Positions 5,434-42,206 of a DNA stretch of 64,000 bases are shown piece after piece. The notes below the pieces were generated by a model that did no database searches, was not told the DNA's origin, and saw nothing but the letters and a program-made list of their open reading frames with translations. The position numbers were made by a program, and so were the translations under genes. Source of the DNA: Myxococcota bacterium (GTDB lineage Bacteria; Myxococcota_A; SURF-8); assembly GCA_965140415.1 (NCBI GenBank), contig OZ223209.1, positions 2,848,001 through 2,912,000 of the forward strand, in the 5' to 3' direction. The number at the start of each line of letters is the position of its first letter. Position 1 is the first letter of the stretch.

Positions 5434-5496
5434 GAGAACAAATCCTTTCTACTTTTATTGCTACGGGTAAGTGGAAACCGCAAAGGTTATACACAA

Positions 5497-5530
5497 ACAG
5501 GGGAGGGCGGTCAAGTCCGCCTTCCCCTGT
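5497..5530 (-). terminator. GC-rich hairpin between the DUF5320 and CGGC genes
   Basis: ACAGGGGAGGGCGG-TCAAGT-CCGCCTTCCCCTGT; only a short T run follows on the minus strand. Confidence 0.55.
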
Positions 5531-5552
5531 AAAGGCAGGGATCACTTTGTTG

Positions 5553-5849
5553 CTACCAGTTTTGGCGTTGTCCGCGACCTTGACCGCGTCTTCGGCCATG
5601 ACCTCGTCCGTCTCCGCCTCCACCTCCGAAGCAGCGTCCACGACCGCCTCCATACGGTCTGCCGCCTCTGCCGACACCGAACATGACTTCATCGCCTTCT
5701 GGTGTCATGCTCTCCATCTCGGTTTCAGGTCGATCCGTGGTTTGATCGGCCTGTCCGGATTTTCGGGACGTCAAGGGGCGACAGCGTCCCATGCCGCGTC
5801 CGGTTCTTGGGCCATTGCCCATCGGTCCGGTCCCGTCTTGTCCAGGCAT
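5553..5849 (-). CDS. DUF5320-family Gly/Arg-rich protein
   Basis: MPGQDGTGPMGNGPRTGRGMGRC start with RBS AGGAGG; Gly/Arg-rich tail. Confidence 0.8.
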   Translation of the reverse strand: MPGQDGTGPMGNGPRTGRGMGRCRPLTSRKSGQADQTTDRPETEMESMTPEGDEVMFGVGRGGRPYGGGRGRCFGGGGGDGRGHGRRRGQGRGQRQNW

Positions 5850-5850
5850 A

Positions 5851-6225
5851 TCAACCTCCTTTTCTGCGACGCAACCGACGGCGACAGCCAGGTTGCGAAC
5901 GCTGATCGAAACATGGAGCTTGCACGGACAATGTGCCATGCAGATACTCCGCGATGCGTGCTTCTGCCTCACCTGTGAGGCCGGTCAGCACGCGAATTCC
6001 CGAGTGGGTAAGGAAAAAATAGTCGCAGCGTCTAATTCCACCTGTCAGCAAGATTTCGACATTCAATCTTGTTAATAGGTTCAAACGATCGGCGCGACTT
6101 AACTGCGCCGCCCTGACGCGCAAGGCTTCCGATTGGCCTCGCTCGGTGTCCTGAACCAGGAAACCGTCACAGAAGTCCAAACGCGGTGAAATATTTCGAT
6201 CGAATAGGGCGGCGGCGACAATCAT
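5851..6225 (-). CDS. NifB/NifX (MTH1175-like) family protein
   Basis: ISPRLDFC...VEILLTGGI...GIRVLTGLTGEAE pattern; operon context. Confidence 0.75.
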   Translation of the reverse strand: MIVAAALFDRNISPRLDFCDGFLVQDTERGQSEALRVRAAQLSRADRLNLLTRLNVEILLTGGIRRCDYFFLTHSGIRVLTGLTGEAEARIAEYLHGTLSVQAPCFDQRSQPGCRRRLRRRKGG

Positions 6226-6237
6226 CGATAACCTCTA

Positions 6238-7461
6238 TCAGTGACCACCACATTTGTGGTTTTCGTCGTGTCCACAAACGTTTGCGCCTGTTTCCAAAAT
6301 ATCGTTGGCGAAGCGACGTACCAGTTCCTCCGGTTCATCGGAGGGGCAACCGGTCACGACGTTGACTCCGGCTTGATTGAACAATTGAATGGCGCGTCCT
6401 CCCATGCCTCCTGCCAGCACCATGTTAGCGCCTTGTTCGGCTACCCAGCGCGGTAATACGCCCGGTTCGTGCGGCGGAGGAGTCAGTTGTTTGGACTCGA
6501 CAATTTCTTTGCTCTCTTCGTCCAGATCGACGAAATGGAACACTTCGCAGTGGCCGAAATGAGCGCAAAGTTTTCCTTGAGCGACGGGGATTGCAATTCG
6601 TTTCACGTTGGTCTTCTCCTTTTGTTGTGGTTCGTTCGAGTCAGTTGTTTGTTGATTCGATTCAATCGATTTCGACAAATCCATAAACGCCTGAGCAACA
6701 GGCGAATCCGGTTGTGATAGCGCGCCTACTCCCTGGTCGGCGCAAAGTGAAATCTGTGGGTCCATAGGCAGCGAGCCAAGCAGGGGAACCCCCATTTGTT
6801 CCGCCATCGCGCGGGCTTCGCCCTCCGGGAAAAGGGTTATGCGTTCACCGCATTTGGGGCAGATAATGCCGTTCATGTTCTCAACGACACCGATCAGCTT
6901 CATTTCGAGCTTATGGCAGAAGGTGATCGATTTTCTTACGTCTACAGCGGAGACTCGCTGTGGGGTAGTGACGACCAGTGCCTCTGCATCCGGTAGGCTC
7001 TGGGCGACGGAAAGTGGTTCGTCGCCAGTGCCTGGAGGTGCATCGACGATCAGGTAGTCCAGTTTTCCCCAGTCCACTTCTGCCAGAAACTGCTGGATAG
7101 CGCCCATTTTGATCGGCCCGCGCCAGATGATGGGACTGTCTGCGTCCGGCAGCATGAAGCCGATGGACATCACTTTGAGACCATCTTTTTCAACCGGAGA
7201 AATCCATCCGTCGTTGCCTCCTGGACGAGCACCTTCCAAACCGAGCATTGTCGGTACGCTGGGGCCATGAATGTCCACGTCAAGCAGTCCCACTCGTTTA
7301 CCGCGTTCTTTCAGAGCGAGTGCCAAATTGACAGCTACCGTGCTTTTTCCAACGCCGCCTTTGCCTGAAAGTACCAGGATTTTGCGACTGACGGATTTCA
7401 TGTTGGCGGCCAATGCGATTTCCCGGGCATCGATTTTCTGTTTACGTTGTTCTTGACTCAT
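6238..7461 (-). CDS. Mrp/ApbC Fe-S carrier ATPase fused to a C-terminal NifB/NifX domain (MrpORP-like)
   Basis: SGKGGVGKST, DVDIHGPS, WRGP, DAPPGTGD, ENM..CPKC; C-terminal IAIP...HFGHC...PPHEPG...GGMG. Confidence 0.92.
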   Translation of the reverse strand: MSQEQRKQKIDAREIALAANMKSVSRKILVLSGKGGVGKSTVAVNLALALKERGKRVGLLDVDIHGPSVPTMLGLEGARPGGNDGWISPVEKDGLKVMSIGFMLPDADSPIIWRGPIKMGAIQQFLAEVDWGKLDYLIVDAPPGTGDEPLSVAQSLPDAEALVVTTPQRVSAVDVRKSITFCHKLEMKLIGVVENMNGIICPKCGERITLFPEGEARAMAEQMGVPLLGSLPMDPQISLCADQGVGALSQPDSPVAQAFMDLSKSIESNQQTTDSNEPQQKEKTNVKRIAIPVAQGKLCAHFGHCEVFHFVDLDEESKEIVESKQLTPPPHEPGVLPRWVAEQGANMVLAGGMGGRAIQLFNQAGVNVVTGCPSDEPEELVRRFANDILETGANVCGHDENHKCGGH

Positions 7462-7470
7462 TGCTACAAA

Positions 7471-7830
7471 TTACTCCGTTTTATTATGGTGTTCACAGTC
7501 GTGGATGGTTGAAAGCATCTGGGGGCCAGCTTCTGTCTGAGTCTGTTCCGCATGAAAATGCAGTTTGCCGAATGCCCCTTCTTCAATGGTCAGCGTAACG
7601 CCGCTGCGTCCATCCAACAGTGGTTCCTTCTTCATCAGTTTCTCGAAATCCGTTTCCAAAACGAAGCGTTGCAGCAGTTCGAACTCTGCTTCTTCTTCCT
7701 CCGTCATGTTTTGCGTACTGGCCAAGAGCTTTTCTGCAAGCTCTCGTCCTCTTGCTTTGGCTGTACAGACCATGCAGTGCCCGGATGTGAGCGGTAGTCG
7801 TATTTTTCGTTTGCAGTTACTCCGGGACAT
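7471..7830 (-). CDS. Hypothetical protein with CxxC, in the orp operon
   Basis: Tightly packed between operon genes; HCMVC motif. Confidence 0.65.
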   Translation of the reverse strand: MSRSNCKRKIRLPLTSGHCMVCTAKARGRELAEKLLASTQNMTEEEEAEFELLQRFVLETDFEKLMKKEPLLDGRSGVTLTIEEGAFGKLHFHAEQTQTEAGPQMLSTIHDCEHHNKTE

Positions 7831-28881: not shown

Positions 28882-29012
28882 TGTTTCACAGGTTCCTTGC
28901 TGATATTGACCTATACCCCTAGCAGATTATCTTGTCTTCTGCCAGTTGCGTGAAGTAAAAAGCGTGATATTTTGAATAAGGGTGTTGATGTCAAAGCCAG
29001 AGTTTCAAGTAT

Positions 29013-30215
29013 ATGACCACTGGAAAGAGCATGTCTGATTGGACGGGGCATAGAATGATTCTGCATGTCGATATGGATGCGTTTTTCGCAGCCATCGAAA
29101 TGCGGGACGATCCCACGTTGAAGGGAAAGCCGGTGATTATCGGTGCCATGCCGGGGATGCGTGGGGTTGTTTCGACTTGCTCATACGAGGCGCGCAAGTT
29201 TGGAGTTCATTCCGCCATGCCAATATCCGAGGCATATCGGAGATGCCCCAACGGCGTTTATTTGCGACCGGATATGAAGCGCTACAGTACTGCATCGAAA
29301 AAGGTGATGCGTGCTTTGCAAGATGTTTCTCCCATAGTTGAACCCGTTTCTGTGGATGAGGCTTACATGGATATCAGTGGCTTGGAGCGCCTCTGGGGTG
29401 GGCCGGAGAAAATCGGTCGGCGGGTGAAAGAGGCAATATGGGAAGCCACGAAATTGTCCGCTTCTGTAGGGATAGGACCGAATCGGCTTGTTGCCAAAAT
29501 CGCATCGGATTTTAATAAACCGGATGGGTTGACCATCATTGCTCCGACAAAAGTTCTTGAGTTTTTATTGCCGTTGGAAATTTCTCGTTTACGAGGCGTG
29601 GGAAAAGTATTCCAACGTAAAATGCGTGACCAGGGAATTCTGACCATTCGGGACTTGCACAGGTATACAGAGGAGCAACTTGTGCAACGATTCGGTCTGG
29701 CGGCGGGTAGGATGTTGTACCGGCAGGCACGAGGAATTGCGTCTGACATTGTGGGGCAGAGCAGTGGACGGAAATCGATATCGAAGGAAACCACTTTCAA
29801 TGAGGATGTTACAGACCTCGCACTGTTGCGAAAAACTTTACGAATGCAATCCGAACAAGTTGGCAGTTCATGTCGGCGAAAACAACTGAAAGGTCGCTGT
29901 ATCACTTTGAAAATTCGTTTAACAGGCTTTGAAACTCATACATGTAGCCTCACTCTTGCCGACTGCACGGATCAGGACAAGAACATTTTTTCCGTTGCTT
30001 GGAAATTATATGAAAACAGTGATTACAAGGGGAAAGCGGTGCGTTTGATCGGTGTTGGAATTTCAGATTGGAGCACCCAACAGCAATTAGACCTATTCGC
30101 ATCGAAAGCTCAGCAGGAGAGTACAGTCACAAATATCAAAGATGAAATTCGAATGCGCTTCGGTTCGCATGTGGTCGGTTTTAGAGCGAAAAAAGAAAAA
30201 CCACGATCAAAATAA
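29013..30215 (+). CDS. dinB: DNA polymerase IV
   Basis: HVDMDAFFA, SYEARKFGV, SVDEAY, AKIASD.KPDG, VRLIGV and a C-terminal clamp motif QLDLF. Confidence 0.95.
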   Translation: MTTGKSMSDWTGHRMILHVDMDAFFAAIEMRDDPTLKGKPVIIGAMPGMRGVVSTCSYEARKFGVHSAMPISEAYRRCPNGVYLRPDMKRYSTASKKVMRALQDVSPIVEPVSVDEAYMDISGLERLWGGPEKIGRRVKEAIWEATKLSASVGIGPNRLVAKIASDFNKPDGLTIIAPTKVLEFLLPLEISRLRGVGKVFQRKMRDQGILTIRDLHRYTEEQLVQRFGLAAGRMLYRQARGIASDIVGQSSGRKSISKETTFNEDVTDLALLRKTLRMQSEQVGSSCRRKQLKGRCITLKIRLTGFETHTCSLTLADCTDQDKNIFSVAWKLYENSDYKGKAVRLIGVGISDWSTQQQLDLFASKAQQESTVTNIKDEIRMRFGSHVVGFRAKKEKPRSK

Positions 30216-30248
30216 GACCGTGGTTTTAAAGTGATTTGCTGCTTTTGC

Positions 30249-31394
30249 CTACACCATTCGTTCCGGTTTTGTGGAGGAATATTCTCGTTTATTCGACGAG
30301 AATATGCGATATCCCCAATCCAGTCGCACGAATGCGATCAGCAAAGATAAAAGGATTATCAGTATCGCTGCGGTGAGCGTTGGGCTGTGAACGTCACGGA
30401 AAAAGATTTTTCCTTCACCTACGGCTGGAGTCGTAATGGGCATAAGTGGCAATCCGTAGCGTTCAGCCAGTCGATTGATTTTCGTCATGTGAATGACGGG
30501 TATGCCTTCGTAGATAAATCGAGTCATTACCGAATCGATGATCGAAGCGCCTCTTGGGGCGGTGCGGTTCAGACCGGGATGGAACATCAACTTGCCGACT
30601 TTCGTACCGACTGAAGTCGTGCCTCCGCCGACATTGATATACACCTTGTAGTCGCCTTGACCGGCATGCAATCTATAAAGTGACATTCTCTGCTCAACAC
30701 TATCGGCATAATCTTTGACTGACAATGAGGGAAGACCGCTACGCTCGATTACGCCGTCCAACATTTTACGGGCGTCTTTGGTCAAACCCAATGCTCGGTC
30801 GTCGATACCTCCTCGAGAGAGAGCAACCGATCTTGAGGGAAACACACGCTTCTCTACCAACACTCGTTCCATATCCGGCCACATCATGTCCGGTAGGTTC
30901 GCGCCCCATTGTGAAGAGCCTGCACTGGAAATCGTAACCGGTTTCAGTTCCAACACCTGGACTGCCGCCAACACAGCGATATTGATGGCGGGAAAGGAGC
31001 CGGACATTCCTATGGCCACTTTGTCGCCGGGCTCTACTCCAGCTCGCTTCAGCAGATGTACAACTACTGCTGCGAAATTAGGATTGGCTGAAGTTTGTTT
31101 TGAGGGAAGGTGCCCAGGATTAGTTGTGACTGGCGAAAGCAGTTCTCCGATGATTCCTGAAAGTGCCGGGTCGGATTCTGCGTCAATGCGATGACCGATA
31201 CGAATTCGTTCTTTCTTGATCGTTTCAAATGCGTCTCTGGTTAGCTGAGCGGCTTTGATCTTTTCCGTATAAAACGGCTGTTTTTCGCGCACACTGTAAG
31301 TTTCGACCGCAATTAATCCTGCAATTGAAAGTAGGGCAACCAAAGAAAGCAGACGCAAGGAAATGCGCTGGGGGCGCCAGTAGAGCTTTTTCAT
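30249..31394 (-). CDS. pgsW: Poly-gamma-glutamate system protein (PgsW-like)
   Basis: N-terminal TM, TT.G.L.SKQTS.NPNFAA, SGSFPA.NIA, GSSQWGAN, YINVGG; directly downstream of pgsBC. Confidence 0.85.
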   Translation of the reverse strand: MKKLYWRPQRISLRLLSLVALLSIAGLIAVETYSVREKQPFYTEKIKAAQLTRDAFETIKKERIRIGHRIDAESDPALSGIIGELLSPVTTNPGHLPSKQTSANPNFAAVVVHLLKRAGVEPGDKVAIGMSGSFPAINIAVLAAVQVLELKPVTISSAGSSQWGANLPDMMWPDMERVLVEKRVFPSRSVALSRGGIDDRALGLTKDARKMLDGVIERSGLPSLSVKDYADSVEQRMSLYRLHAGQGDYKVYINVGGGTTSVGTKVGKLMFHPGLNRTAPRGASIIDSVMTRFIYEGIPVIHMTKINRLAERYGLPLMPITTPAVGEGKIFFRDVHSPTLTAAILIILLSLLIAFVRLDWGYRIFSSNKREYSSTKPERMV

Positions 31395-31837
31395 GACAGC
31401 ACCTCCGGCCCCACGATCAGAATGAGAATGAGACGCACGATAACCGAAACGATGGTCAAAGATGCCAGTGTTTGGACTACGCCTTGTTTGTCCATCCAGA
31501 GGGCAATCAGTCCTGGAATAATAAATCCGATGACATAGTAATCAAGCATGGCTACACCGCGCCAATTGCTGACCAGCATGCCGATGATATAGCCAACCAA
31601 GATCATCAAAGCCGTGCGGCGTCTTCCGTAGATGATCATGAAGGAAGAAAGCGCCCGGACAAAACCGAAGGTTGCAAAGGCGACTGCCAGAGTGATTGCA
31701 ATATCCGCCGGCTTGGTGAGATACAAAGCCATGTAGCCAGGAACGATCAAGCCGCCAGTTGCTATTCCAAAGACTTCCGTAAAGAGCATCCCGACAACCA
31801 AGCCGATTCCAACCGCCATCGAAAGAAGTTCGATCAT
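31391..31837 (-). CDS. pgsC: Poly-gamma-glutamate biosynthesis protein PgsC/CapC
   Basis: GGLIVPGYMAL, IYGRRR, IGFIIPGLIA.W; TGATG coupling to pgsB. Confidence 0.93.
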   Translation of the reverse strand: MIELLSMAVGIGLVVGMLFTEVFGIATGGLIVPGYMALYLTKPADIAITLAVAFATFGFVRALSSFMIIYGRRRTALMILVGYIIGMLVSNWRGVAMLDYYVIGFIIPGLIALWMDKQGVVQTLASLTIVSVIVRLILILIVGPEVLS

Positions 31838-33030
31838 CACTGTTCCTCCGGAACACTTCGATTCTTGAAATAGCGCACCAACTTCAATCCTTGCCCGCCA
31901 ATATTTCCCATTCCAACAATCAGGGTGGTTTTTCCGCACACTTCTAAAACTTGCTCAAGAATATCGTCCATTCTTTCGCTATCTACGTGTATCAGCTTCT
32001 GTGCGATCTGGTTTTTCTGTGCTGCGATGCGAGCGAAAAGGTATGCGCCCGATCCCATAAGAATCACATTGTCTGCTCGATGCCAGAAGTTTGCGTCGTG
32101 GGCGAATTGATGGGTTCGCGATGGTCGGTCTCCACGCAAATTGAAAATTCCAATTACCCGTTCCGCCTCGTGATGCTTTTCAAGAGAGTAGCGCCAGATG
32201 GTTTTCGTTGATTCTGGATCGTTGGCGGCAAAGCCGTTGATGAAAATGATTTTACGACCATAGAAATTCAATGTATATTCGCTCATCGCTCCCGGATCGG
32301 GATGCGTATTCCACATGCCTTGAATCGCTGTTTGCCGATCAATGCCGAAATCGGAGAGAATTCGAAGAACCAAAGCTACGTTTTCCTTGTGCTCGGTATA
32401 GCAAAATCCCGCCATTTCCTTGTCTGTTACTGCATTCACATCTGCTTCGTCAACACTGACGACGCGAGTCCCTCGATCATTGGCAGCGAGGGTAAGCGTT
32501 TCAAGGTGTTTTTGTTCCGCTGTATAAAGCACACCTTTTATGGGAATCATGCCTGCAAGTGTCAGGGCAACGTCTTTTTCGGTCGGTCCCATAATATCAA
32601 GATGATCGGCGCGAGCATTGGTGATGACGCCGTGTGTGGCCTTGATCAACATGTTTTCGGAGACCCAGTGCAGCAAAGGTTGCAATGCCATGCATTCCGC
32701 AACCAACGCTTCCGCACCGATGTTGATTGCTGCCGAAACAACTCTCTTCTGTTCGATAATATTCGCGCCCAATGGACGGTATATTGGAAACTCTCTGTGG
32801 TCAGGTAATATCATGCGCGCAAGAGTGCCGGTGGTTTTAGCTGCTGTAGATATTCCCCCGGCGTTGAGCCCGGCATGAATCAGGCGGGTAACGCTAGATT
32901 TTCCCCTTGTGCCACTGACGTGGATACGTGTCGGGAGTTTATGAAGATGGCTCGCGTGCAGTGCTCGTTCGGCTACTCCAAGACCGATTAGTCCTCCTGC
33001 AAGGAGGCTTAGAACTTCTACTCCGACCAT
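31837..33030 (-). CDS. pgsB: Poly-gamma-glutamate synthase PgsB/CapB
   Basis: RIHVSGTRGKSSVTRLI, AKTTGT, NIIEQ, ECMALQP, TNARADHLD, GFAANDP.ST, GMGNIGG. Confidence 0.95.
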   Translation of the reverse strand: MVGVEVLSLLAGGLIGLGVAERALHASHLHKLPTRIHVSGTRGKSSVTRLIHAGLNAGGISTAAKTTGTLARMILPDHREFPIYRPLGANIIEQKRVVSAAINIGAEALVAECMALQPLLHWVSENMLIKATHGVITNARADHLDIMGPTEKDVALTLAGMIPIKGVLYTAEQKHLETLTLAANDRGTRVVSVDEADVNAVTDKEMAGFCYTEHKENVALVLRILSDFGIDRQTAIQGMWNTHPDPGAMSEYTLNFYGRKIIFINGFAANDPESTKTIWRYSLEKHHEAERVIGIFNLRGDRPSRTHQFAHDANFWHRADNVILMGSGAYLFARIAAQKNQIAQKLIHVDSERMDDILEQVLEVCGKTTLIVGMGNIGGQGLKLVRYFKNRSVPEEQ

Positions 33031-33055
33031 GGTGTCTCCTTAGGTTCGAATGCGA

Positions 33056-33910
33056 CTAAGCATACGATAAAAGCATTGTGCGCACAAGCTTTGCGGCGAC
33101 AATAGAGGAAACTCCGCTTGGGTCGTAATCTGGTGAAAGTTCGACCATGTCCATACCGACGACATGAAGGGCGTTAAGTTTTCTAAGGCTTCGATCTAAG
33201 TCAAAATAGCTACAACCACCAGGTTCAGGTGTGCCCGTTCCCAGCAGCACAGAAGGATCCAGCACGTCCAGGTCCAGCGTTACGTATACCGGGCGTTGTC
33301 CGACTTTAGCAATAATCTGATCGATCGCTTCACCCGCAACAGGATACACACAATTGGCTTGTCGCATCCGGTTCCACTCTTCACGTGTTCCGGAACGAAT
33401 ACCGATCTGGAATGTTTCTCCGGTTGGAAGTGCCTCGGAAATCAAATTCATTACCGTGGCATGGCTCAGGCGAACACCGAGATAATCCTGGCGCATGTCG
33501 GCGTGTGCGTCGAATTGAATGACGCATAGTTCCGGATAATTTGGAAGTAGCGCTTGAATGGCACCCCAAGTTACCAGATGTTCGCCGCCAAGTAAGAAAG
33601 GCTTAGCGCCTCTTTCAAGAATTCCTTCAGTCCCTTTACGGATAATCTCCAGTACTCGGGCACTGTCGCCCATAGGAAGATCAAGATTGCCGAGATCTGC
33701 AAAAGCAAGATCATCAAGACTTTGAGTACAGATTGGACAGTAGTCTTCAAGACCTTCAGATGCTTCGCGCAACGCGTTGGGACCGCTTCTTGAGCCGGAG
33801 CGAAAACTGCTCGTGCCATCGAACGGAGCGCCGAAAAGAGCCCAACCGCCGCTTATCAATTCAGTCGAAGCACATAAAAAAGGTTTTGCCTTCAGGAATT
33901 CAGCAGGCAT
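33056..33910 (-). CDS. speB: Agmatinase
   Basis: GGEHL, FDAHADMR, SHAT, DLDVLDPS..GTGTPEPGG ureohydrolase motifs. Confidence 0.93.
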   Translation of the reverse strand: MPAEFLKAKPFLCASTELISGGWALFGAPFDGTSSFRSGSRSGPNALREASEGLEDYCPICTQSLDDLAFADLGNLDLPMGDSARVLEIIRKGTEGILERGAKPFLLGGEHLVTWGAIQALLPNYPELCVIQFDAHADMRQDYLGVRLSHATVMNLISEALPTGETFQIGIRSGTREEWNRMRQANCVYPVAGEAIDQIIAKVGQRPVYVTLDLDVLDPSVLLGTGTPEPGGCSYFDLDRSLRKLNALHVVGMDMVELSPDYDPSGVSSIVAAKLVRTMLLSYA

Positions 33911-33912
33911 GA

Positions 33913-34770
33913 TTATTGGCCTTCGGAAATTAATTCCTGATACAGAGTTTGAGCAAATGCGGGAAGGTGGAACGCGCTGTTTTGAGTCTCTGCCGTATAA
34001 TAGCGCAATCCTTTCATATTCTCAACGCGTTGCCGATTGAAATGCTCGTGTGGGGTTCTGCTCTGCGATGCGAAAGCGAATGTCCAGTAGCCGCTCGGAT
34101 ACATCGGTATTGCACCGCCATATGCAGCGATGTTTTTGAAAACCTGACGCAATTCGAGGAACGTACGCTTCCATGGTTCCAATTGGTAAAACGGAGATTC
34201 CGCTTGCTGAACGAAAATACCACCCGATTTTAGGGCTCGGTTGCAGTCTTCGTAGAAAGGTGAGCGGAAAAGGCCTTCTGCAAATCCGATGGGATCGGTG
34301 GAATCCACGATGATGACGTCGAAGCTGTTTTTATGCTGCCGAATATACTCGATTCCATCCCCAACAAAGACTTCCGCTTTAGGAGAATCGAAACCGCAGG
34401 CAACAAATGGAAGATGCTTTTTGCTTTCAGTGATGACCATTTCGTCGATTTCGCACAATACAGCGCGTTCGACTTCGGGGTGTTTGGTTACTTCCCGTAA
34501 GGTGCCACCGTCGCCGCCGCCGATGATCAGTACCTGCGCGGGAGATGGATGGGCAAAAAGGGTAGGGTGCACCAGCAGTTCATGGTAAGTGAACTCATGC
34601 TTTTCAGTCAGCATGAGAAAACCATCTAATGCCATAACACGGCCTACGGATTCATTTTCGAAGATATCCAGTTGTTGCATGCCGGTATGAACGGATACCA
34701 GTTCGTGATCGATGCGAATCGTTTGACCGTATCCCTTTTCGGCTTCTTTGAACCACTTCGCGTTACTCAT
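33913..34770 (-). CDS. speE: Spermidine synthase (polyamine aminopropyltransferase)
   Basis: YHELLVH, LIIGGGDGG, CEID, DVIIVDSTDP, YPSGYW. Confidence 0.95.
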   Translation of the reverse strand: MSNAKWFKEAEKGYGQTIRIDHELVSVHTGMQQLDIFENESVGRVMALDGFLMLTEKHEFTYHELLVHPTLFAHPSPAQVLIIGGGDGGTLREVTKHPEVERAVLCEIDEMVITESKKHLPFVACGFDSPKAEVFVGDGIEYIRQHKNSFDVIIVDSTDPIGFAEGLFRSPFYEDCNRALKSGGIFVQQAESPFYQLEPWKRTFLELRQVFKNIAAYGGAIPMYPSGYWTFAFASQSRTPHEHFNRQRVENMKGLRYYTAETQNSAFHLPAFAQTLYQELISEGQ

Positions 34771-34788
34771 CTGTACTACCTCAGCCGA

Positions 34789-35277
34789 TTATTGGTCAAT
34801 GGAAGCCATCGGGAACAGGACGACGCCTGCAAATGATGCTCCGACGGTTTCGACTTCATGTTCTGTTGAGATGGACAGGATACGGTCGAGCTCGAAGTTC
34901 CGGTATTTGAAAGCTTCTTCCGCCATGGAACGGACTACGCGTTCAATATCCTGGGAGCGGCCACGTGCGCTGTATTCCATAATCACACCTGGTAATTCCG
35001 GGTCTTTTGGCACTGCGATAGCCACCGCTGCCGAAATGATATCTTGCGGTGTAGAAGATTCGATGCTGCCGTACGCAATCGGAGTATACCCGCCTAATGG
35101 TAGCTTCACCGGTTTGCTCTCGATCATGCCGGGAGGCAGGATGGAGGACAACTTGATAAGATTGACATTCCCGACGCCTGCATTTAACAAAGCGGCATCA
35201 AACGCATTAAGAATCGTGTATCCTTCCGAGTGACCGGCGCAAAGGAAAAAATGAGTCGGCTTTTCCAGCAACATCAA
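34789..35277 (-). CDS. Pyruvoyl-dependent arginine decarboxylase (PdaD family)
   Basis: [27 protein letters not shown] with the Ser-Ser self-cleavage site; GVIMEY. Confidence 0.9.
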
Positions 35278-35693
35278 GCATCTCCGTGTTGAAAATGAAA
35301 AGAATTGAGTTCGGTTCGCGGCAGGTCTATATGGGTTTCCGAAACTTCAATAATCCCACGTTTCATTTCTTGATGCGCCGTCCGCCCAGCTTTGAGTTTA
35401 CGTTCGATGTATTCGAACGCGATCCATGGATCTACCGTATCGCCACAGGTGAAGAGATCCAGCGCGGCATATCCACTCTCTGGCCATGTATGGATGGACA
35501 AATGTGACTCGGCGATCACGACCACTCCACTCACTCCTTGTGGGGAAAATTTATGAATGACGTTTCCCACGATGGTGGCTCCGGCTAATTCCGCAGCCTG
35601 CAACATCATGCGGTTTACCGATTCCTGATCGTTCAAAACGACCGGATCGCAGTCATACATTTCCACAAGAATATGACGTCCCAATTCTTTCAT
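35274..35693 (-). CDS. speD: S-adenosylmethionine decarboxylase proenzyme (short class)
   Basis: [43 protein letters not shown]. Confidence 0.95.
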
Positions 35694-35736
35694 TTCTTAG
35701 ACTCCACTCGAAAACAGCGTCACATGCGCAAAATGG

Positions 35737-35783
35737 AAGAAAAGAGCCGGGGAGGGACTGATCTGCTCAGTCGCCTCTCCCGG
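35737..35783 (-). terminator. Terminator-like hairpin between the HU gene and speD
   Basis: Minus strand: CCGGGAGAGGCGACTGA-GCAGA-TCAGTCCCTCCCCGG followed by CTCTTTTCTT. Confidence 0.6.
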
Positions 35784-35848
35784 GTCCGTTCGCTTTACCC
35801 TAAAAAGGTAAAAACAGGAAAAGAATCAACTTGTCAGTTTAGTATCCG

Positions 35849-36178
35849 TTATTTTTTGGCTTTCTTAGGCGGAACGATTGATTCCTGGAAAGATTTGGAC
35901 AGTCGCATCTTCACAACGGTCTTGGCGGCAATTTTGATCGTTTCGCCGGTGGCCGGATTGCGTCCCATGCGTGCTGCACGTTTGGTCAGGGCTACTTTAC
36001 CCATGCCGGGAATGGTGAAGGTTCCGTTTTTCTTGGCTTCTTTGGCGGCCAGTTTGACCAACTCATCAAGAAAGTCACCAGCGGTGGCTTTGCTGATTTC
36101 AAACGTGTCGGCGAAATGTGCAATCACCTGAGCTTTGGTCATCGGCTTTTTGGGGGCGGCTGTTTTTTTCTCTGCCAT
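35849..36178 (-). CDS. HU-family DNA-binding protein
   Basis: MTKAQ..., F.IPG.GK, RAARMGRNPATGETIKI; Lys-rich termini. Confidence 0.95.
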   Translation of the reverse strand: MAEKKTAAPKKPMTKAQVIAHFADTFEISKATAGDFLDELVKLAAKEAKKNGTFTIPGMGKVALTKRAARMGRNPATGETIKIAAKTVVKMRLSKSFQESIVPPKKAKK

Positions 36179-36419
36179 GTTAAGTCTCCTTAATCATTTA
36201 GAATTAGTTGAATGCTACTATGCAGTTCCTGAAAAAATCGTAGTACATCAAAAGCGAATAGATATTTTCAGAAACCGAAACCATAATTGAATCATCTATT
36301 GCGTTCCTTTTAAGACACTAAAAATGGAACGAGAACCGTTTGCCCGCTGTTGCAATACTAAAAACGCCGCAGCATTGCTTGGCGAGAGCGAATTCTTTTA
36401 TACTCTAAGTCGTATAAAG

Positions 36420-36713
36420 TCAATGTACTTCTTTGCCGCGAATCAATCTAATACTTGAATCTTCGGACATCTCGATCATCAACATGCCGTCATCGCCTTT
36501 ATGGACGATTCCTGTGACTTGAACTTCCTGGCGTAATCTGGAAAATAATTCCTGGGAGGATGGGGTCTCTATGACAAAATATTCTTTTTCACCATCAGTG
36601 AAAATGCTTACTCCGGTGACTTGGTTGTCTTTGCCCCATTTGGAGGCAGTGACAATACCGGTAACCGTTGTGATTTTATCATGCTTCTTTCCAGGCAAAA
36701 TGTACCTCATCAC
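36420..36713 (-). CDS. Small hypothetical beta-rich protein under a sigma54 promoter
   Basis: 97-aa ORF with a duplicated VTGIV motif, directly downstream of a -24/-12 site. Confidence 0.65.
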   Translation of the reverse strand: MMRYILPGKKHDKITTVTGIVTASKWGKDNQVTGVSIFTDGEKEYFVIETPSSQELFSRLRQEVQVTGIVHKGDDGMLMIEMSEDSSIRLIRGKEVH

Positions 36714-36758
36714 TCATGGCCAGATATCGAGTCTTGCAAAATCAACGGGCCGCACTAA

Positions 36759-36774
36759 AGCAGAAATCGTGCCA
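36759..36774 (-). promoter_or_regulatory. Sigma54 -24/-12 promoter
   Basis: Minus strand reads TGGCACGATTTCTGCT (GG-N10-GC). Confidence 0.78.
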
Positions 36775-36849
36775 CATAAAGAAATTAGAAATAGGTGTAA
36801 CAAATACAATAGGATACTGTTGAGTCGCAAAATTGGTTAGATGATAAAT

Positions 36850-36968
36850 TCGGAACTGTAATGTCCGATAAACCGATTCTGGTTGCATTGAAGGACGAAT
36901 GTTTTCTGTGATTCTCGTTAACACAATGATATTACAGAAGATGTACGAGTCGGAATAAATATGTCCGA
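36850..36968. promoter_or_regulatory. Two palindromic putative enhancer sites, TCGGA-N9-TCCGA
   Basis: TCGGAACTGTAATGTCCGA (36850-36868) and TCGGAATAAATATGTCCGA (36950-36968), upstream of the sigma54 promoter. Confidence 0.7.
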
Positions 36969-36987
36969 AATAGCACTATTCGGAAGC

Positions 36988-38421
36988 TCAATGTCTGGTT
37001 GTGGAGGGGGGCTTGAAGTCCGCCTTGTTAAGACTATGTTTGACCATCAGGCGATGTAGCTGGCGTTCTGTAATGCCAGCGGCTTTGGCGGATAGACCGA
37101 TTTTTCCTTCACATCGCGTTAGCAAGTCATTTAGGTAGCGCTGTTCAAGAACATGATATGCAGACTGGCGGAAGCTGGACAAGGATTGGTTGGTATCAAC
37201 TGGTCGATCCGTTCGCGTGGCATGACCTTCGAAGAGATCGGATGGAAAAGCTTCTTCGGTAAGGATGGAACTCTCTTCCAGCAAATACGCTCGCTCGATC
37301 AGGTTTTCCAGCTCACGAATGTTTCCCGGCCATTCATAATGCTGAAATGCATCCAGTACGTTGGCGTGAATATAATGGATTTCTTTTTGGTATAGAAGAT
37401 TCAAGCGCGAAAGAAAAGTGTCTGTTAATAGTGGTATGTCCTCTCTGCGTTCTCGCAATGCCGGCAGTTCAATAGGAAAGACATTCAGGCGATAGAACAA
37501 ATCACTGCGAAAGGTGCCTTCAAGGCGCCGTTGATTCAAGTCTTCATTCGTTGCTGCGATAATGCGAACATCCACATCGATGTCCTTGGGGCTGCCGAGG
37601 CGGCGAATCTGTTTGTCCTGTAGTACTTGCAGAAGTTTAACCTGCATGGATTGACTGATCGTTCCTACTTCATCTAGAAACAGTGTTCCTCCATCCGCAA
37701 CTTCAAAGCGACCCAGCTTGCGTTCTGTGGCTCCTGTAAAAGCTCCTTTTTCATGACCGAACAATTCACTTTCCAGCAAACTATCTGGGATCGCTCCGCA
37801 ATGTACCGAAATAAACTGGTCCTCTTTGCGTTCGCTGTGACGGTGCAGCAGTTTGGCAAGTAATCCTTTACCGGTACCTGTTTCTCCGGTCAGCAGCACC
37901 GTAACTTTCTTTCCGGCCACGGTTCGGACCTTGTTAAAGATCGCCTGCATTTTGGGACTGTTGGTAGTAACCACTTCCAGCGAATCGTCTTGCCAGAATC
38001 GATCTCGCAGGTAATCCAATTCAAGTTGCAGGTATTTGGATTCGTCCAGGTCCTCTAGCTCGTGGAGGACTTCTTCTCGGACGATTGGATAGGTCAGGTA
38101 GGTGCTGGCTCCAGCGCGAATAATCGAAACGGTTTCTCGGATGCGCTCCGGTGGTGTCAGGATGATGATTTCCACTGATGGAAAAAGCCGCCAGATCCCC
38201 GCCAGTACGCTTTGCATCTCCTTTAAGCTGCGACGACTTTTTGCCGTGCGCAGGATCAAATCGATTTCAAGAAATAAAATCTCATACAGTCGATCCTGGC
38301 GACTTTCAAGAATTTCAAGCGACGGGCCAACAAGAAGGTCCGTCTCGCAGGTGCTTGCCAGCACGTTTTGCAGCGTGCGGCCCATCGCTTGGTTTTCTAC
38401 AGCCACCAGAATCGATTGCAT
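36988..38421 (-). CDS. Sigma54-dependent activator with a degenerate receiver domain
   Basis: GETGTGKG, GAFTGA, FLDE, WPGNIRELEN, HTH. The receiver-like N-terminus lacks canonical DD, D and KP residues. Confidence 0.92.
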   Translation of the reverse strand: MQSILVAVENQAMGRTLQNVLASTCETDLLVGPSLEILESRQDRLYEILFLEIDLILRTAKSRRSLKEMQSVLAGIWRLFPSVEIIILTPPERIRETVSIIRAGASTYLTYPIVREEVLHELEDLDESKYLQLELDYLRDRFWQDDSLEVVTTNSPKMQAIFNKVRTVAGKKVTVLLTGETGTGKGLLAKLLHRHSERKEDQFISVHCGAIPDSLLESELFGHEKGAFTGATERKLGRFEVADGGTLFLDEVGTISQSMQVKLLQVLQDKQIRRLGSPKDIDVDVRIIAATNEDLNQRRLEGTFRSDLFYRLNVFPIELPALRERREDIPLLTDTFLSRLNLLYQKEIHYIHANVLDAFQHYEWPGNIRELENLIERAYLLEESSILTEEAFPSDLFEGHATRTDRPVDTNQSLSSFRQSAYHVLEQRYLNDLLTRCEGKIGLSAKAAGITERQLHRLMVKHSLNKADFKPPSTTRH

Positions 38422-38438: not shown

Positions 38439-41400
38439 TTACCGACTGCTACAGTCGACAGCATCATCAAAGTAATCGTCAGGGAATTCGATTTCACAGA
38501 ATTCGTTGCAATTTCCGTCGTTCTGCAATCCGCAGGGGTCGTCCGCCGAACAACTGCAATTGGTGTAGATGCGTTGTTCGCAGTGGTCCTGGGCTACCTG
38601 ATCGCAATCGTACACACAGCGGCAGGTTTCATTTTCATACCCAGGAGTTGTGTATTCATGACAAACACCCGACAGAGCTTCGCTTACATCGATGCAATAA
38701 CGATTGCAGTCCGCGGCTTTTAACGTGTTCGTGGTTTGGTAGCAATAACAGAGATCCAAGGCATCCATGCAACCGAATGGCGGATTTTCAATGTCACAAG
38801 GACCGGCACAGCCGGTGATTGTGCCTAAATCAGCCTCGAAGGTGAACAGCCCCATGGAGGTTTCGTAAACACCATCGACAATGAGATACACGGTTTGAGC
38901 GCTACCGGTTTCGTTGATGTAATTGATGCGACTGGAGGATGCGGAGATGCAAGTGTCCATATCCGCAGGATCCGTTATCAGCACCAGCCTTGGCCCGAAG
39001 CTGACAGCCGATGTCAAAGCCGCAGCGAAGAAATCTCCACTTTGCAGATCTGCACGATAAACGACATCCGGTCCGATCAGTTCGCTGGATGCACAGCCAT
39101 CGGCACCTGGATCGTAATCGTTGGTTGCTCCGATCGTACTACCTTCGTAAACGCCGGGGCTGTCTATCAGCAGAGCCGTTTCTGCCGTGTTGTTACTTGG
39201 GGCAGTAATCGCTTCGTAAGCAATGTTCAAAGTAAAGGTCGTATCCTCGTTTGGATCGAGAAGGAACGTGTCCACGATCAGGAACGCCGAAAGCAACTCA
39301 TCGGATTCATTAGCGTAGATGAATTGCTCGATACCTGCTTCATAGTTGGTGTCTGCTCCTGCCAGGCAGCTGTCGTTCGCAGCGGAGCAATCTGTTACCA
39401 GATAAATCTGGGAGTCGAAGGGCGCATCGATGATTACCTTAATTGTATGATTTGCAGGAACCTCGACCGAGTAAGCCAAGTCTTTCCCCATGGCTCCCCA
39501 GCCTGTGCAATTGGCAGCGGTGTAATTAGCGCCTGCCCCGCTGAAGTCAAGATCGTGCTCCCCAGCAGCTAACGTGTCTGCACCCGCGCAAGTGCTATTT
39601 TGGGCTAGATTGTAGCGGTCAACATAGAGCAGGAACGGATCGTCGGACAGTCCCACCACATAAGGCGACTGGGTGACCTCGATGTAAACGTCCTGCTCTT
39701 GTTCCGGCTGGTAGCCAATCAACACCGAGAAGTAGTTTCCTCCGTTCGAGCTGATGTCATCGTTGATCCAGCCTTCGATTTCGTTGCCGAAGCGATCCAG
39801 AAGGCGAACGATTGTATCCGCCGCAGTGTCGCAGAAAGGCATAGTACGCACATCCAGTCCTTGTGTAGGACTTACATGGATCTTGAACAGATCGATGTCC
39901 GGGTGCCCTTCTTGCGGGGTAAAGACTTCCGATATTGTAGTTGGGAAATCGTTCAGTTCCATCGCTGAAAGCAGATCGTTGTTGGGTTCTATTTCCATGC
40001 CGTCGATTTCCGGGGATAAATCACAGTAGCCGCCGGAGCAAACCAGCATGTCACATCCGCAATCCGCATCGGAAGAGCAGTTACCCGTTTGGCAGAAGCC
40101 ATTCTGGCAGATGCCACTACCGCAATCCGCCTGTTCTGTACAGGGGTTACCATCCGGCTGGCTTTGTTGGCAATAGCCGTCTTCATTGCATGTTGAGGGT
40201 AGGCTACAAGCGCCGGTTACAGGCAGACAAAGTTTATCGTATCCGTTAATGTTGTAGCAGCGTGTACCGGTGGGACACACTTTATTGAAGTAGCCGCAAT
40301 CCAACGCACAGAAACTGTTGCCGTCTATGCCGGTGACGCATTGATTGAATCCCCAGCCTTCAGCGTTGCATTCGTAATCGAAGTTATCGGGGTCACAAGG
40401 GGTGCACATTCCAGCTTCCTGTGGTTCGATCAGGACCGATCCTTCGCAATGAGTGGCGTTATCGCAGGTGGTGGTGCATTCACCATTTATACATTGACCG
40501 GTTTCACAGTCGATGTCGTTGCGGCAGTAACCGAATAGGTAACGTTGATTCTGGAAGCTCAATACACAGCGATTGTCGAAGCAGGACATACCATCCGGGC
40601 ACTGATCGTCGCTCTGGCAGGCATCGCTACAGTAAGTGACTTGGAAATTGGGGTCAGGGTAGCATTCTCCGCTGCATTGTTCTTGTGATTCACAGTAATC
40701 CATGCAGCTGTTCCAATAGCAGTATAATCCCTCTTCACATTCCAGTGTGGCGTTGCAGTACGCGCCGACCGGCTTGATGTGAACCTTTGCAGAGGGGACG
40801 CAAGAAGAAACATTGTCTTCCTCCAGGCACTCTCCGCTTGAGCAGGTCGCACTTTCACAGTCGTCAGTGCAGATCATTTCCCCCAGAACCTCGCGGCACA
40901 GCCCTGAAGTACATTGCCAGTCGCCGACACAAGCCTGACCAAAGCCGAGGTTCATGTCTACATCGCGAGTGCATACGCCGGTGTCTGGGTTCGCCATCAT
41001 ACCGAAGACGCAACTCATGCCCGCAGGGCAGGTATCCACTCCAGCAAATACCCAACATTGGCCGGAGCAGTAATTGTTCAGACAGTATCGGCTATTGCAA
41101 TCCGCGCCGCTGGCACAAACCTGGTTCATGGTATTGCTGCCTTGGGGAACGCAAATATACCCGAATTCACCGGATTCCAGGCATTTTCCGCAGCCTTCAC
41201 ATAACAGATCGCTGCCACCGATTCCGGCAACTTCACAATTTTTGGTGCAGAAACGATAGCTGCCATATGCCAGGCAGGAACCTTCGGTACAGTCCGCATC
41301 ACTGTTGCAAACGTTAAACAGACCTAAACTACTGTCGCCAGGCAGGGTGTCATCGATCAGGATCGGACGGCAGATTTTCCCGATGTCCAGACCGCCCCAG

Positions 41401-42206
41401 GCGCAGGCCATGTTTTCGGGGCAAGCCGGCATATCTTCGCCGCAGCGCTGGGCGCAGAAAGTGTTCCAGTCGTTATTCAAATCGATACACAGTCCGCTTT
41501 CGCATTCACTATCGTAATTACAGGGATAATTGGTAAGTTGGTCGTAGGTGCGATGGTCACAGACTCCGAAACCGTAACAGGTTTCAGCCAAACACATGCC
41601 GCTTCCCTCTAATCCGTCAACGAATTCACAGGCATAGTCGTCTGGGGCGGGCTCGTAGGAACACTGGCCCGTTTGAGGATCGCAGACGCCGGGTAAGGTG
41701 CAAGGATCGCCCTCAGAGCAAACTACCGGTTCAATTCCAGTGCAGGTTCCTAACTCGCACTGTCCATTCTGCTGACACAAATCGCCTTCATGGCAAACTA
41801 GACCTTCATTGATGGGTAGGCATCCATCGCAGCAGTCGTTGACTACGGAACAGGTGCATTGTACGACTTCATCGATTTCCTCATCCCCATCAACAATTAT
41901 GTCACCATCGGGAATGTCACCATCGGGAGTATCTCCATCTATAATATCGCCGTCTGGAGTGTCACCATCCGTTTTGTCACCGTCCACGGATTGATCGCCA
42001 TCGGAATTGTCTCCATCTGTCTGATCACCATCTGGCGTATCGCCATCGGCAGGGGTATCCTGGTCACCATTAGAGGTGTCGCCATCGATAATGATGTCAC
42101 CATCGTTTTGATCGCCGTCGGGGGTGTTGTCATCACTGCCGGAGCACCCCGCAAATGTGATCAAAAACAATAGGAGGGTGATAGACGTCAAAAAAGTATA
42201 ACGCAT
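38439..42206 (-). CDS. Large DGD-repeat, Cys-rich lipoprotein with PPC-like beta-sandwich domains
   Basis: TFAG-C lipobox, about 13 DGD motifs, many C..D.DC..G.C modules, EIEPNND...DIDLF...DTIVRLLD segment. Confidence 0.85.
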   Translation of the reverse strand: MRYTFLTSITLLLFLITFAGCSGSDDNTPDGDQNDGDIIIDGDTSNGDQDTPADGDTPDGDQTDGDNSDGDQSVDGDKTDGDTPDGDIIDGDTPDGDIPDGDIIVDGDEEIDEVVQCTCSVVNDCCDGCLPINEGLVCHEGDLCQQNGQCELGTCTGIEPVVCSEGDPCTLPGVCDPQTGQCSYEPAPDDYACEFVDGLEGSGMCLAETCYGFGVCDHRTYDQLTNYPCNYDSECESGLCIDLNNDWNTFCAQRCGEDMPACPENMACAWGGLDIGKICRPILIDDTLPGDSSLGLFNVCNSDADCTEGSCLAYGSYRFCTKNCEVAGIGGSDLLCEGCGKCLESGEFGYICVPQGSNTMNQVCASGADCNSRYCLNNYCSGQCWVFAGVDTCPAGMSCVFGMMANPDTGVCTRDVDMNLGFGQACVGDWQCTSGLCREVLGEMICTDDCESATCSSGECLEEDNVSSCVPSAKVHIKPVGAYCNATLECEEGLYCYWNSCMDYCESQEQCSGECYPDPNFQVTYCSDACQSDDQCPDGMSCFDNRCVLSFQNQRYLFGYCRNDIDCETGQCINGECTTTCDNATHCEGSVLIEPQEAGMCTPCDPDNFDYECNAEGWGFNQCVTGIDGNSFCALDCGYFNKVCPTGTRCYNINGYDKLCLPVTGACSLPSTCNEDGYCQQSQPDGNPCTEQADCGSGICQNGFCQTGNCSSDADCGCDMLVCSGGYCDLSPEIDGMEIEPNNDLLSAMELNDFPTTISEVFTPQEGHPDIDLFKIHVSPTQGLDVRTMPFCDTAADTIVRLLDRFGNEIEGWINDDISSNGGNYFSVLIGYQPEQEQDVYIEVTQSPYVVGLSDDPFLLYVDRYNLAQNSTCAGADTLAAGEHDLDFSGAGANYTAANCTGWGAMGKDLAYSVEVPANHTIKVIIDAPFDSQIYLVTDCSAANDSCLAGADTNYEAGIEQFIYANESDELLSAFLIVDTFLLDPNEDTTFTLNIAYEAITAPSNNTAETALLIDSPGVYEGSTIGATNDYDPGADGCASSELIGPDVVYRADLQSGDFFAAALTSAVSFGPRLVLITDPADMDTCISASSSRINYINETGSAQTVYLIVDGVYETSMGLFTFEADLGTITGCAGPCDIENPPFGCMDALDLCYCYQTTNTLKAADCNRYCIDVSEALSGVCHEYTTPGYENETCRCVYDCDQVAQDHCEQRIYTNCSCSADDPCGLQNDGNCNEFCEIEFPDDYFDDAVDCSSR

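Follow-up and report, generated by a model that had tools for sequence, protein, structure and literature searches.

A cluster of seven genes in a Myxococcota genome places a predicted arginine-to-spermidine route directly before a pgsB-pgsC-pgsW cassette whose product is presumed to be poly-gamma-glutamate. We consider it likely, with a probability of about 0.7, that these are two independently conserved and already catalogued cassettes, set head to tail by genome rearrangement in this Myxococcota lineage. Both cassettes are known already, and what is particular to the locus is their juxtaposition.

Composition of the seven-gene cluster

Gene identities were taken from NCBIfam profile scores set against curated cut-offs and cross-checked with Pfam. 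All seven proteins of the cluster (SpeD, PdaD, SpeE, SpeB, PgsB, PgsC and PgsW) exceed their NCBIfam cut-offs, and Pfam is concordant for six of them, the pgsW product having no Pfam match. The genes all lie on the minus strand, with spacings of -4 to +25 nt between neighbours (positions are those of the window, the whole 64,000-nt stretch of DNA analysed, and features are on the minus strand unless stated). The original prediction of seven same-strand genes separated by gaps of at most 25 nt is thus borne out by the profile matches and by our reading of the junctions.

The first gene is speD (35274–35693), encoding an S-adenosylmethionine (SAM) decarboxylase proenzyme of 139 aa (TIGR03330 158.1 bits, cut-off 75.65; PF02675 149 bits), in which a stretch of 13 residues fits what we take to be the Glu-Ser self-cleavage site motif. 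It overlaps by 4 nt with pdaD (34789–35277), for a pyruvoyl-dependent arginine decarboxylase of 162 aa (TIGR00286 139.5 bits, cut-off 106.95; PF01862 130.3 bits), which is followed after 18 nt by speE (33913–34770), for a polyamine aminopropyltransferase or spermidine synthase of 285 aa (NF002010 346.6 bits, cut-off 260; TIGR00417 294.6 bits), and after a further 2-nt gap by speB (33056–33910), for an agmatinase of 284 aa (TIGR01230 252.9 bits, cut-off 174.3; PF00491 249.3 bits). All four enzyme families of the pathway are therefore present over curated cut-offs, and the claim that these genes lead from arginine and SAM to spermidine holds as a complete predicted route. PdaD would convert arginine to agmatine, SpeB agmatine to putrescine and SpeD SAM to decarboxylated SAM, with SpeE turning putrescine into spermidine. 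The sequence fits SpeE acting on putrescine or on agmatine, the latter being the aminopropylagmatine route of Thermus.

The speB-pgsB junction (33031–33055) measures 25 nt and carries an AGGAGA ribosome-binding site before the pgsB ATG; a classical promoter would not fit into it. PgsB (31837–33030), the ligase subunit of poly-gamma-glutamate synthase, has 397 aa, and its description as a Mur-type amide ligase agrees with its scores (TIGR04012 431.8 bits, cut-off 222.7; PF08245 33 bits) and with a Mur-ligase P-loop, GTRGKSS. For the membrane subunit gene pgsC the mechanical open reading frame extends to 31939, and the TIGR04011 match begins at residue 43 of this long frame. If the start is the ATG at 31837, behind GGAGGA, pgsC occupies 31391–31837, encodes 148 aa (TIGR04011 125.5 bits, cut-off 96.45; PF14102 112.7 bits) and overlaps pgsB by 1 nt (TGATG). 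Directly after pgsC, and overlapping it by 4 nt, lies a gene for a pgsW-type 'poly-gamma-glutamate system protein' of 381 aa (30249–31394; TIGR04332 325.8 bits, cut-off 100).

The AF2 model of PgsW (pLDDT 89.7) has helices at residues 13–32 and 338–358, and the protein is accordingly modelled as two terminal transmembrane helices flanking an alpha/beta domain. Foldseek gave no informative fold match to the PDB (TM-scores of 0.19 or less), and VIA-align against 48,161 chains reached a best Z of 7.9 (rmsd 3.3, 129 residues aligned). The VIA-align matches listed are generic Rossmann-type; they include many methyltransferases and a single polyamine synthase (Z 6.5), and no periplasmic polyamine-binding-protein fold. 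The name 'poly-gamma-glutamate system protein' is used in public records from Myxococcota, Planctomycetota and other groups, and it also appears in excerpts of a Francisella genome comparison (PMC5362203). Our literature search returned no paper using the name 'pgsW' and no study of a TIGR04332-type system.

Distribution and history of the linkage

We surveyed 61 related genomes, 43 other species-representative loci and 80 metagenome loci, 64 of the latter with 1 kb or more of flanking sequence on one side. The pgsB-pgsC-pgsW genes are kept as a unit at all 20 loci of the related genomes, at 41 of 43 species-representative loci and at 63 of 80 metagenome loci, and the unit stands without spe genes at 18, 39 and 63 of these, respectively. 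Of the 43 species-representative loci only 2 have spe genes beside pgsBCW, and these belong to a single related genus with another gene order; none of the 80 metagenome loci has them. This is close to the synteny confined to one genome that the original prediction had named as evidence against itself. Adjacency was seen only in this genome (G000) and in G006 and G009, which represent a single genus (g6) where the order is HU-pgsBCW-spe, as against HU-spe-pgsBCW here; the linked state thus occurs in three of the nine pgsW-bearing genomes of the order. The linkage is not conserved beyond close kin and, since it is almost unique to this lineage, the pairing is better read as local gene rearrangement than as a shared pathway.

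Nor do the two modules travel together. Among the ten genomes with both pgsW and speD, the two are adjacent in three, 369 kb apart in one and on different contigs in six. SpeD exceeds its cut-off in 10 of 20 pgsW-positive and 16 of 41 pgsW-negative genomes (n=61, the genomes being mutually related); speD is not commoner in genomes with pgsW than in those without, and there is no co-occurrence signal. The g23 genomes, which lack a TIGR03330-type speD, were considered as a case of pgsBCW being independent of polyamines and were set aside, as they carry nspC and speE elsewhere. Only in G019 and G022, which have pgsBCW, was speD not found with both nspC and speE below cut-off. Our literature search found no paper describing a spermidine-polyglutamate operon linkage; in excerpts of one article the two compounds are both mentioned, only as separate acid-stress factors (PMC8982180).

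The spermidine cassette likewise has a life of its own. In a tblastn search of the whole genome speD, pdaD and speB were single-copy and speE had only a weak (28%) second match; a single gene of the Orn/Arg/DAP-decarboxylase fold is present. Because these spe genes are the only copies in the genome, the cassette is best seen as housekeeping, serving general polyamine supply. A speD-pdaD-speE-speB unit was found in all four other genomes examined (G001, G004, G007 and G020), where it stands alone with the same genes, order and strand and 38–73% protein identity, and two of the four lack pgsW. Compared with this stand-alone operon of relatives, the operon here and in genus g6 abuts pgsBCW. PdaD-based polyamine routes in bacteria are themselves in print, as excerpts of two papers indicate (PMC8503589, PMC13625781).

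As for how the cassettes met, the HU/IHF-family DNA-binding protein gene at 35849–36178 (PF00216 78.4 bits) is informative, since its counterpart lies directly upstream of pgsB in relatives (G002, G004, G006 and G009). A sigma-54 activator-HU-pgsBCW arrangement is common to this genome, G004 and G006, which singles out the spe cassette as the insertion in this genome: it sits between HU and pgsB, where relatives have just a short spacer. Such an insertion would lead to all seven genes being read from one transcript, and the position of the cassette at this spot makes one transcript the most likely state. Gene order is heavily scrambled among members of the family, and the sequences flanking the spe cassette in G001 and in G004 correspond to dispersed positions in G000. 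We also looked for a clean empty site; the G004 flanks map to 3.020–3.026 Mb of G000, but one inversion and an additional open reading frame of 608 aa lie between them, leaving no clean excision scar.

The gene trees complicate this history. The tree of PgsB and PgsW places G006 and the unlinked G004 as sisters (SH-aLRT 99), with G000 outside that pair; in the tree of the four spe proteins G000 instead clusters with G001 and G004, both unlinked (92), and it is G006 that falls outside. The two linked lineages are therefore non-sister on both trees, implying that the adjacency either arose twice or was ancestral and often lost. One route would be a linkage ancestral to the order, with some five later losses and a single local swap. 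Two joinings of the cassettes at the same locus would be very unlikely by chance and would suggest selection.

Transcription and competing readings

An intrinsic terminator with a 12-pair stem and a T-run, recognised by the terminator scan and on reading the sequence, closes the cluster at 30187–30227; the convergent dinB ends there too. Every other terminator-like site has a stem of 5 pairs, except for an 11-pair one at 32219–32243 on the + strand, opposite the cluster, and the scan total is at chance level (8 found, 7.9 expected). Between speB and pgsB neither the scan nor our reading of the junction found a terminator, and the claim that the cluster has no visible internal terminator stands, in that none inside it is convincing. 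Because of the 25-nt speB-pgsB gap, the lack of a convincing internal terminator and the one strong terminator at the end, the seven genes probably form one transcript, ending at the closing hairpin (30227–30197). Judged from these signals the spermidine and polyglutamate genes are probably co-expressed in this organism, and pgsBCW now seems to rely for its expression on transcripts that pass through the spe genes. The proposed co-production of polycation and polyanion therefore survives as probable co-expression, inferred from spacing and terminators; as a shared pathway it finds no support, given a near-unique linkage and no co-occurrence signal.

Upstream, the 155-nt HU-speD spacer folds at -54.3 kcal/mol (z -2.5) and contains a GC-rich hairpin followed by a U-rich tract (35739–35791), which leaves about 45 nt before the speD ATG. 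The terminator scan did not flag this hairpin, which is probably an HU terminator or a leader element; an Rfam search of 29000–37500 gave no riboswitch or leader match at E <= 1. No sigma-54 promoter was found before speD, and across the window the pattern occurs less often than chance predicts (28 found, 34.9 expected). A promoter region shared with relatives was considered and rejected, since the spacer aligns with the HU-pgsB spacers of four relatives only over the hairpin and T-run.

It could be argued that the neighbours are transcribed separately, with a promoter in the 3' part of speB driving pgsBCW. The pgsBCW genes of relatives do have their own upstream region after HU, and the sigma-70 consensus used in the scan predicts Myxococcota promoters poorly, promoter-like sites inside coding sequence being at chance level (7 found, 8.3 expected). 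Against this, the scan, with that same limitation, reported no promoter-like site on the minus strand in the 200 nt before pgsB, no terminator separates speB from pgsB, and the gap between them holds a ribosome-binding site only; we regard separate transcription as very unlikely. A selected co-regulation without covalent chemistry seems unlikely as well, though less so. Here the polycation spermidine and the polyanion poly-gamma-glutamate would have been brought under one promoter because making both together benefits the cell, for example by balancing charge, by forming a matrix or coacervate, or by dealing jointly with excess nitrogen from arginine and glutamate. Adjacency in two non-sister lineages of one order, in two arrangements with identical orientation, speaks for it, as do the tight junction here and a spacer of roughly 100 nt in G006 that has no strong terminator. 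Indeed, the polyphyly of the linked state on both gene trees, and a speB-pgsB spacing as tight as any within either cassette, count against simple rearrangement. However, the order's other six genomes with pgsW lack the linkage, as do 41 of 43 species-representative loci and all 80 metagenome loci; the modules show no co-occurrence signal; and no selection would be needed for the swapped order if the cassettes had been adjacent ancestrally and had then undergone tandem duplication and differential loss. Doubtful in our view is a stronger version, with two independent recruitments of the spe cassette to the pgsBCW locus within one order (before pgsB here, behind pgsW in g6), the gain being that a single transcript yields both polycation and polyanion. 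As counter-ion, spermidine or putrescine would then condense poly-gamma-glutamate in periplasm or matrix; less probably, one of them would supply the amine from which PgsB begins a chain.

Direct biochemical coupling, with PgsB as a Mur/FolC-type enzyme using putrescine or spermidine as primer or acceptor to give a gamma-glutamylated polyamine or a polyamine-capped polyglutamate, strikes us as highly improbable. What speaks for it is the gene adjacency and the general capacity of ATP-dependent ligases to acylate amines, and nothing else; bacteria do gamma-glutamylate polyamines but, in excerpts of the literature, by way of glutamine-synthetase-like enzymes (PMC5403932, PMC8998196). PgsB is an ordinary TIGR04012 member, 58–64% identical to PgsB of relatives without spe genes at the pgs locus; pgsBCW is found in G019 and G022, in which nspC and speE stay below cut-off and no speD was found; the spe genes are single-copy housekeeping genes; and the matches listed for the PgsW model are generic Rossmann-type folds (Z of 7.9 or less), with no polyamine-binding-protein fold among them. 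We infer that the two products have no direct biochemical link. The idea of polyamine as primer, acceptor or dedicated counter-ion thus fared poorly, in the face of a rare linkage, no co-occurrence, single-copy spe genes and modules conserved independently of each other.

Were the link real, it would be the first clue to the product of a widespread PgsA-less polyglutamate cassette in double-membraned bacteria and would point to a polyamine-polyglutamate material, and the non-sister status of the two linked lineages is the one point left in its favour. As the evidence stands, and in line with the rearrangement that we prefer, the locus illustrates how a neighbour's transcription unit may capture a housekeeping operon in a genome with fast-changing gene order, and tight spacing in one genome is weak evidence for a shared pathway.

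Comparison with known systems

The closest known system is the pgsB-pgsC-pgsW cassette itself (TIGR04012/TIGR04011/TIGR04332), which the cluster matches with all three proteins over cut-off, an identical order and genes that overlap or nearly do; it differs from the cassette of relatives in that the latter's own upstream spacer has been lost and four spermidine genes precede. In double-membraned bacteria such a PgsA-less cassette would presumably polymerise glutamate via gamma-amide bonds at the inner membrane. The established poly-gamma-glutamate systems are pgsBCA(E) of Bacillus subtilis and capBCADE of Bacillus anthracis, whose PgsB (an ATP-dependent Mur-type ligase) and PgsC (a membrane subunit) are homologous to those found here. 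Unlike in these systems, the cell envelope here is diderm and the third gene is not PgsA/CapA, having no PF09587 match. That no pgsA/capA or capD lies nearby was confirmed: the only PF09587 match over cut-off in the genome (2,196,562–2,197,101) is about 680 kb from the cluster, and the gamma-glutamyltranspeptidase/CapD family (PF01019) has no match in this 93.7%-complete genome.

With respect to polyamines, PuuA of E. coli is a gamma-glutamylpolyamine synthetase. Bacterial gamma-glutamylation of polyamines through glutamine-synthetase-like enzymes is also described, in excerpts of two papers, for GlnA3 and GlnA2 of Streptomyces coelicolor (PMC5403932, PMC8998196). NCBIfam and Pfam matches revealed no member of the glutamine-synthetase-fold family in the cluster. 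The reaction originally proposed for PgsB, linkage of a polyamine to the gamma-carboxyl of glutamate, is the one that GlnA3, GlnA2 and PuuA carry out, but they do so with a glutamine-synthetase fold, add one glutamate and act in polyamine breakdown or detoxification.

Seven-gene cluster and its upstream region

The genome studied here (G000) is a single contig of 5.98 Mb whose closest public relatives are MAGs labelled Myxococcota or Myxococcales, and its window (C1:2848001-2912000) contains seven successive ORFs on the minus strand, running from 35693 to 30249. All seven exceeded the curated NCBIfam cut-offs by which they were assigned: SpeD (TIGR03330, 158.1 bits), PdaD (TIGR00286, 139.5 bits), SpeE (NF002010, 346.6 bits), the agmatinase SpeB (TIGR01230, 252.9 bits), PgsB (TIGR04012, 431.8 bits), PgsC (TIGR04011, 125.5 bits) and PgsW, a 'poly-gamma-glutamate system protein' (TIGR04332, 325.8 bits). 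Pfam was in accord for the first six proteins, and no Pfam family matched PgsW. From speD to pgsW the junctions measure -4, +18, +2, +25, -1 and -4 nt, the pgsB/pgsC value taking the ATG at 31837 as the pgsC start; this codon has GGAGGA ahead of it and agrees with the start of the TIGR04011 alignment. At the cluster end, facing the convergent dinB, lies a 12-pair hairpin with a T-run (30227-30197); the remaining terminator-like matches are 5-pair stems and, on the plus strand (32219-32243), a single stem of 11 pairs, and the number of such sites is at chance level (8 found, 7.9 expected). Family scores, junction lengths and the terminal hairpin therefore bear out the single-strand cluster of the original prediction. 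Since the 25-nt speB-pgsB junction holds only a ribosome-binding site, and a single terminator stands at the cluster end, the spe and pgs genes are probably co-transcribed.

An HU-family gene (35849-36178) lies 155 nt ahead of speD, and the spacer carries a GC-rich hairpin and, after it, a U-rich tract (35791-35739, minus strand; fold z -2.5), with roughly 45 nt left up to the ATG of speD. The hairpin matched no Rfam family, and apart from a comparable hairpin, such as the one standing before pgsB in the related genome G002, the spacer showed no alignment to those between HU and pgsB in relatives. The hairpin of G000 could be an HU terminator read through by the downstream operon, or a leader element, and spe-pgs transcription would come either from HU read-through or from a promoter within the spacer. 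HU is itself preceded by an unassigned 97-aa ORF (36420-36713, minus), and 46 nt upstream of that ORF a site (TGGCACGATTTCTGCT, 36759-36774, minus) departs from the sigma-54 promoter consensus at one position; the count of this pattern across the window is not above chance. Adjoining this ORF is a sigma-54 enhancer-binding-protein gene (36988-38421, minus), and a 1255-aa ORF (38439-42206, minus) has an N-terminus resembling a signal sequence, a long stretch of repeats rich in Asp, Gly and Thr, and numerous Cys-rich modules.

Two separable modules and the frequency of their linkage

The pgs genes form a unit of their own. TIGR04332 was found in 20 of 61 related genomes, and pgsB-pgsC-pgsW kept their order in all 20 loci fetched (from 19 other genomes); the full triad was present in 41/43 loci from a scan of species representatives (one genome each), spanning Myxococcota, Planctomycetota, Thermodesulfobacteriota and Oligoflexales, and in 63 of the 80 loci kept from a metagenome scan. 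A second PgsB-like region in G000 (G000:C1:4374496-4375491; 34% identical to PgsB) scored 219.1 bits against TIGR04012, slightly below the 222.7 cut-off. It sits within a 742-aa ORF without a Pfam match (positions 5396-7624, minus strand, of the fetched locus L089), flanked by a 689-aa ORF with a HEAT repeat and a 1432-aa ORF, with no other family matched.

The spe module is an independent unit too: speD-pdaD-speE-speB occurred in the same order in all four loci fetched (G001, G004, G007 and G020), and two of these genomes, G007 and G020, lack pgsW. In G000, tblastn against the genome returned speD, pdaD and speB as single copies and, beside speE itself, just one speE-like match of 28% identity. 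Because these are sole copies and only one Orn/Arg/DAP-decarboxylase-fold gene is present, the cassette appears to be the general polyamine supply of the cell. Among the 61 related genomes, pdaD is present in 10. This distribution does not show that pgsBCW works without polyamines: genomes of genus g23 without a TIGR03330-type speD have nspC and speE elsewhere, not adjoining pgsW, while G019 and G022 lack speD, nspC and speE, the three families checked, at cut-off.

The spe genes adjoin pgsBCW in G000, G006 and G009, the latter two forming one genus (g6) in a sister family with the order HU-pgsB-pgsC-pgsW-speD-pdaD-speE-speB, in which spe lies behind pgs rather than in front as in G000. These same two genomes account for the linked loci in relatives (2/20) and among species representatives (2/43); none of the 80 metagenome loci was linked, at least 1 kb of flank being available upstream of pgsB in 40, downstream of pgsW in 52 and on at least one of these sides in 64. 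The order of G000 comprises ten species genomes, nine with pgsW and three linked. Where pgsW and speD both passed the cut-off (ten genomes), they were adjacent in three, at a distance of 369 kb in G008 and on separate contigs in G001, G002, G003, G004, G043 and G060; speD occurred in 10/20 pgsW-positive versus 16/41 pgsW-negative genomes. The synteny is thus nearly confined to G000, the exception being G006/G009 with their other order. In G009 (fetched as L043 and L082; G009:C32:7873-11483) the pgsB, pgsW and speD matches are broken by stop codons or frame changes (pgsB in three pieces, pgsW with one TAA and two TGA, speD in two pieces), which points either to a linked cluster that is truly decaying or to indels introduced by long-read assembly.

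History of the locus

G004 and G006 share the syntenic block of sigma-54 activator, HU and pgsBCW, and HU adjoins pgsB in G002, G004, G006 and G009, so the spe cassette of G000 appears to have entered later, at the HU-pgsB boundary. Genes in this family are strongly reshuffled: the spe flanks of G001 and G004 map to scattered positions in G000, those of G004 to 3.020-3.026 Mb with an inversion. Most likely, a rearrangement has locally joined two known operons to give this cluster.

The chief evidence against this explanation is that the linked state is not monophyletic, as follows from two trees. For PgsB+PgsW (25 rows, including 5 of the 80 metagenome loci and 0 of 37 extra species loci; G009 excluded as fragmented), G006 was sister to the unlinked G004 (SH-aLRT 99), with G000 outside the pair; for the four spe proteins (6 rows), G000 grouped with the unlinked G001 and G004 (92), with G006 outside. 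The linkage may be ancestral to the order, repeatedly broken in fast-rearranging genomes and swapped once; if pgsBCW-spe had been duplicated in tandem and the outer copies then lost, the result would be HU-spe-pgsBCW with orientation preserved. Alternatively the cassettes may have been joined twice, which is hardly possible by chance and would therefore speak for selection; we regard it as improbable that selection for making polycation and polyanion together lies behind the double occurrence. The PgsB+PgsW tree is also at odds with the spe tree and with taxonomic families, G006 (family f2) being sister to G004 (f1) and G008 (f4) grouping with G001 (f1), and this discord could reflect pgs cassette transfer within the order or weak tree resolution.

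PgsW and comparison with known polyamine glutamylation

The AlphaFold model of PgsW (pLDDT 89.7, pTM 0.84) has N- and C-terminal membrane helices (13-32 and 338-358) enclosing an alpha/beta domain, which the positively charged termini suggest faces the periplasm. No specific relative emerged from Foldseek (TM-scores of at most 0.19) or VIA-align (best Z 7.9, generic Rossmann-type matches), so the fold speaks neither for nor against a role connected with polyamines.

The original prediction held that polycation and polyanion are co-produced. Co-expression in G000 is plausible given the 25-nt junction and single terminator, but a shared pathway is not supported, the linkage being nearly confined to this genome, and the sequences do not point to direct chemistry between spermidine and polyglutamate products. 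No description of spe-pgs linkage was found in the literature searched. The polyamine gamma-glutamylation described in PMC5403932 and PMC8998196 is carried out by glutamine-synthetase-like enzymes. The cluster encodes no such enzyme, and its PgsB is a typical member of its family, sharing 58-64% identity with PgsB of relatives without spe genes at the locus; the spe-pgs order is an unusual, lineage-restricted arrangement of two ordinary, known cassettes.
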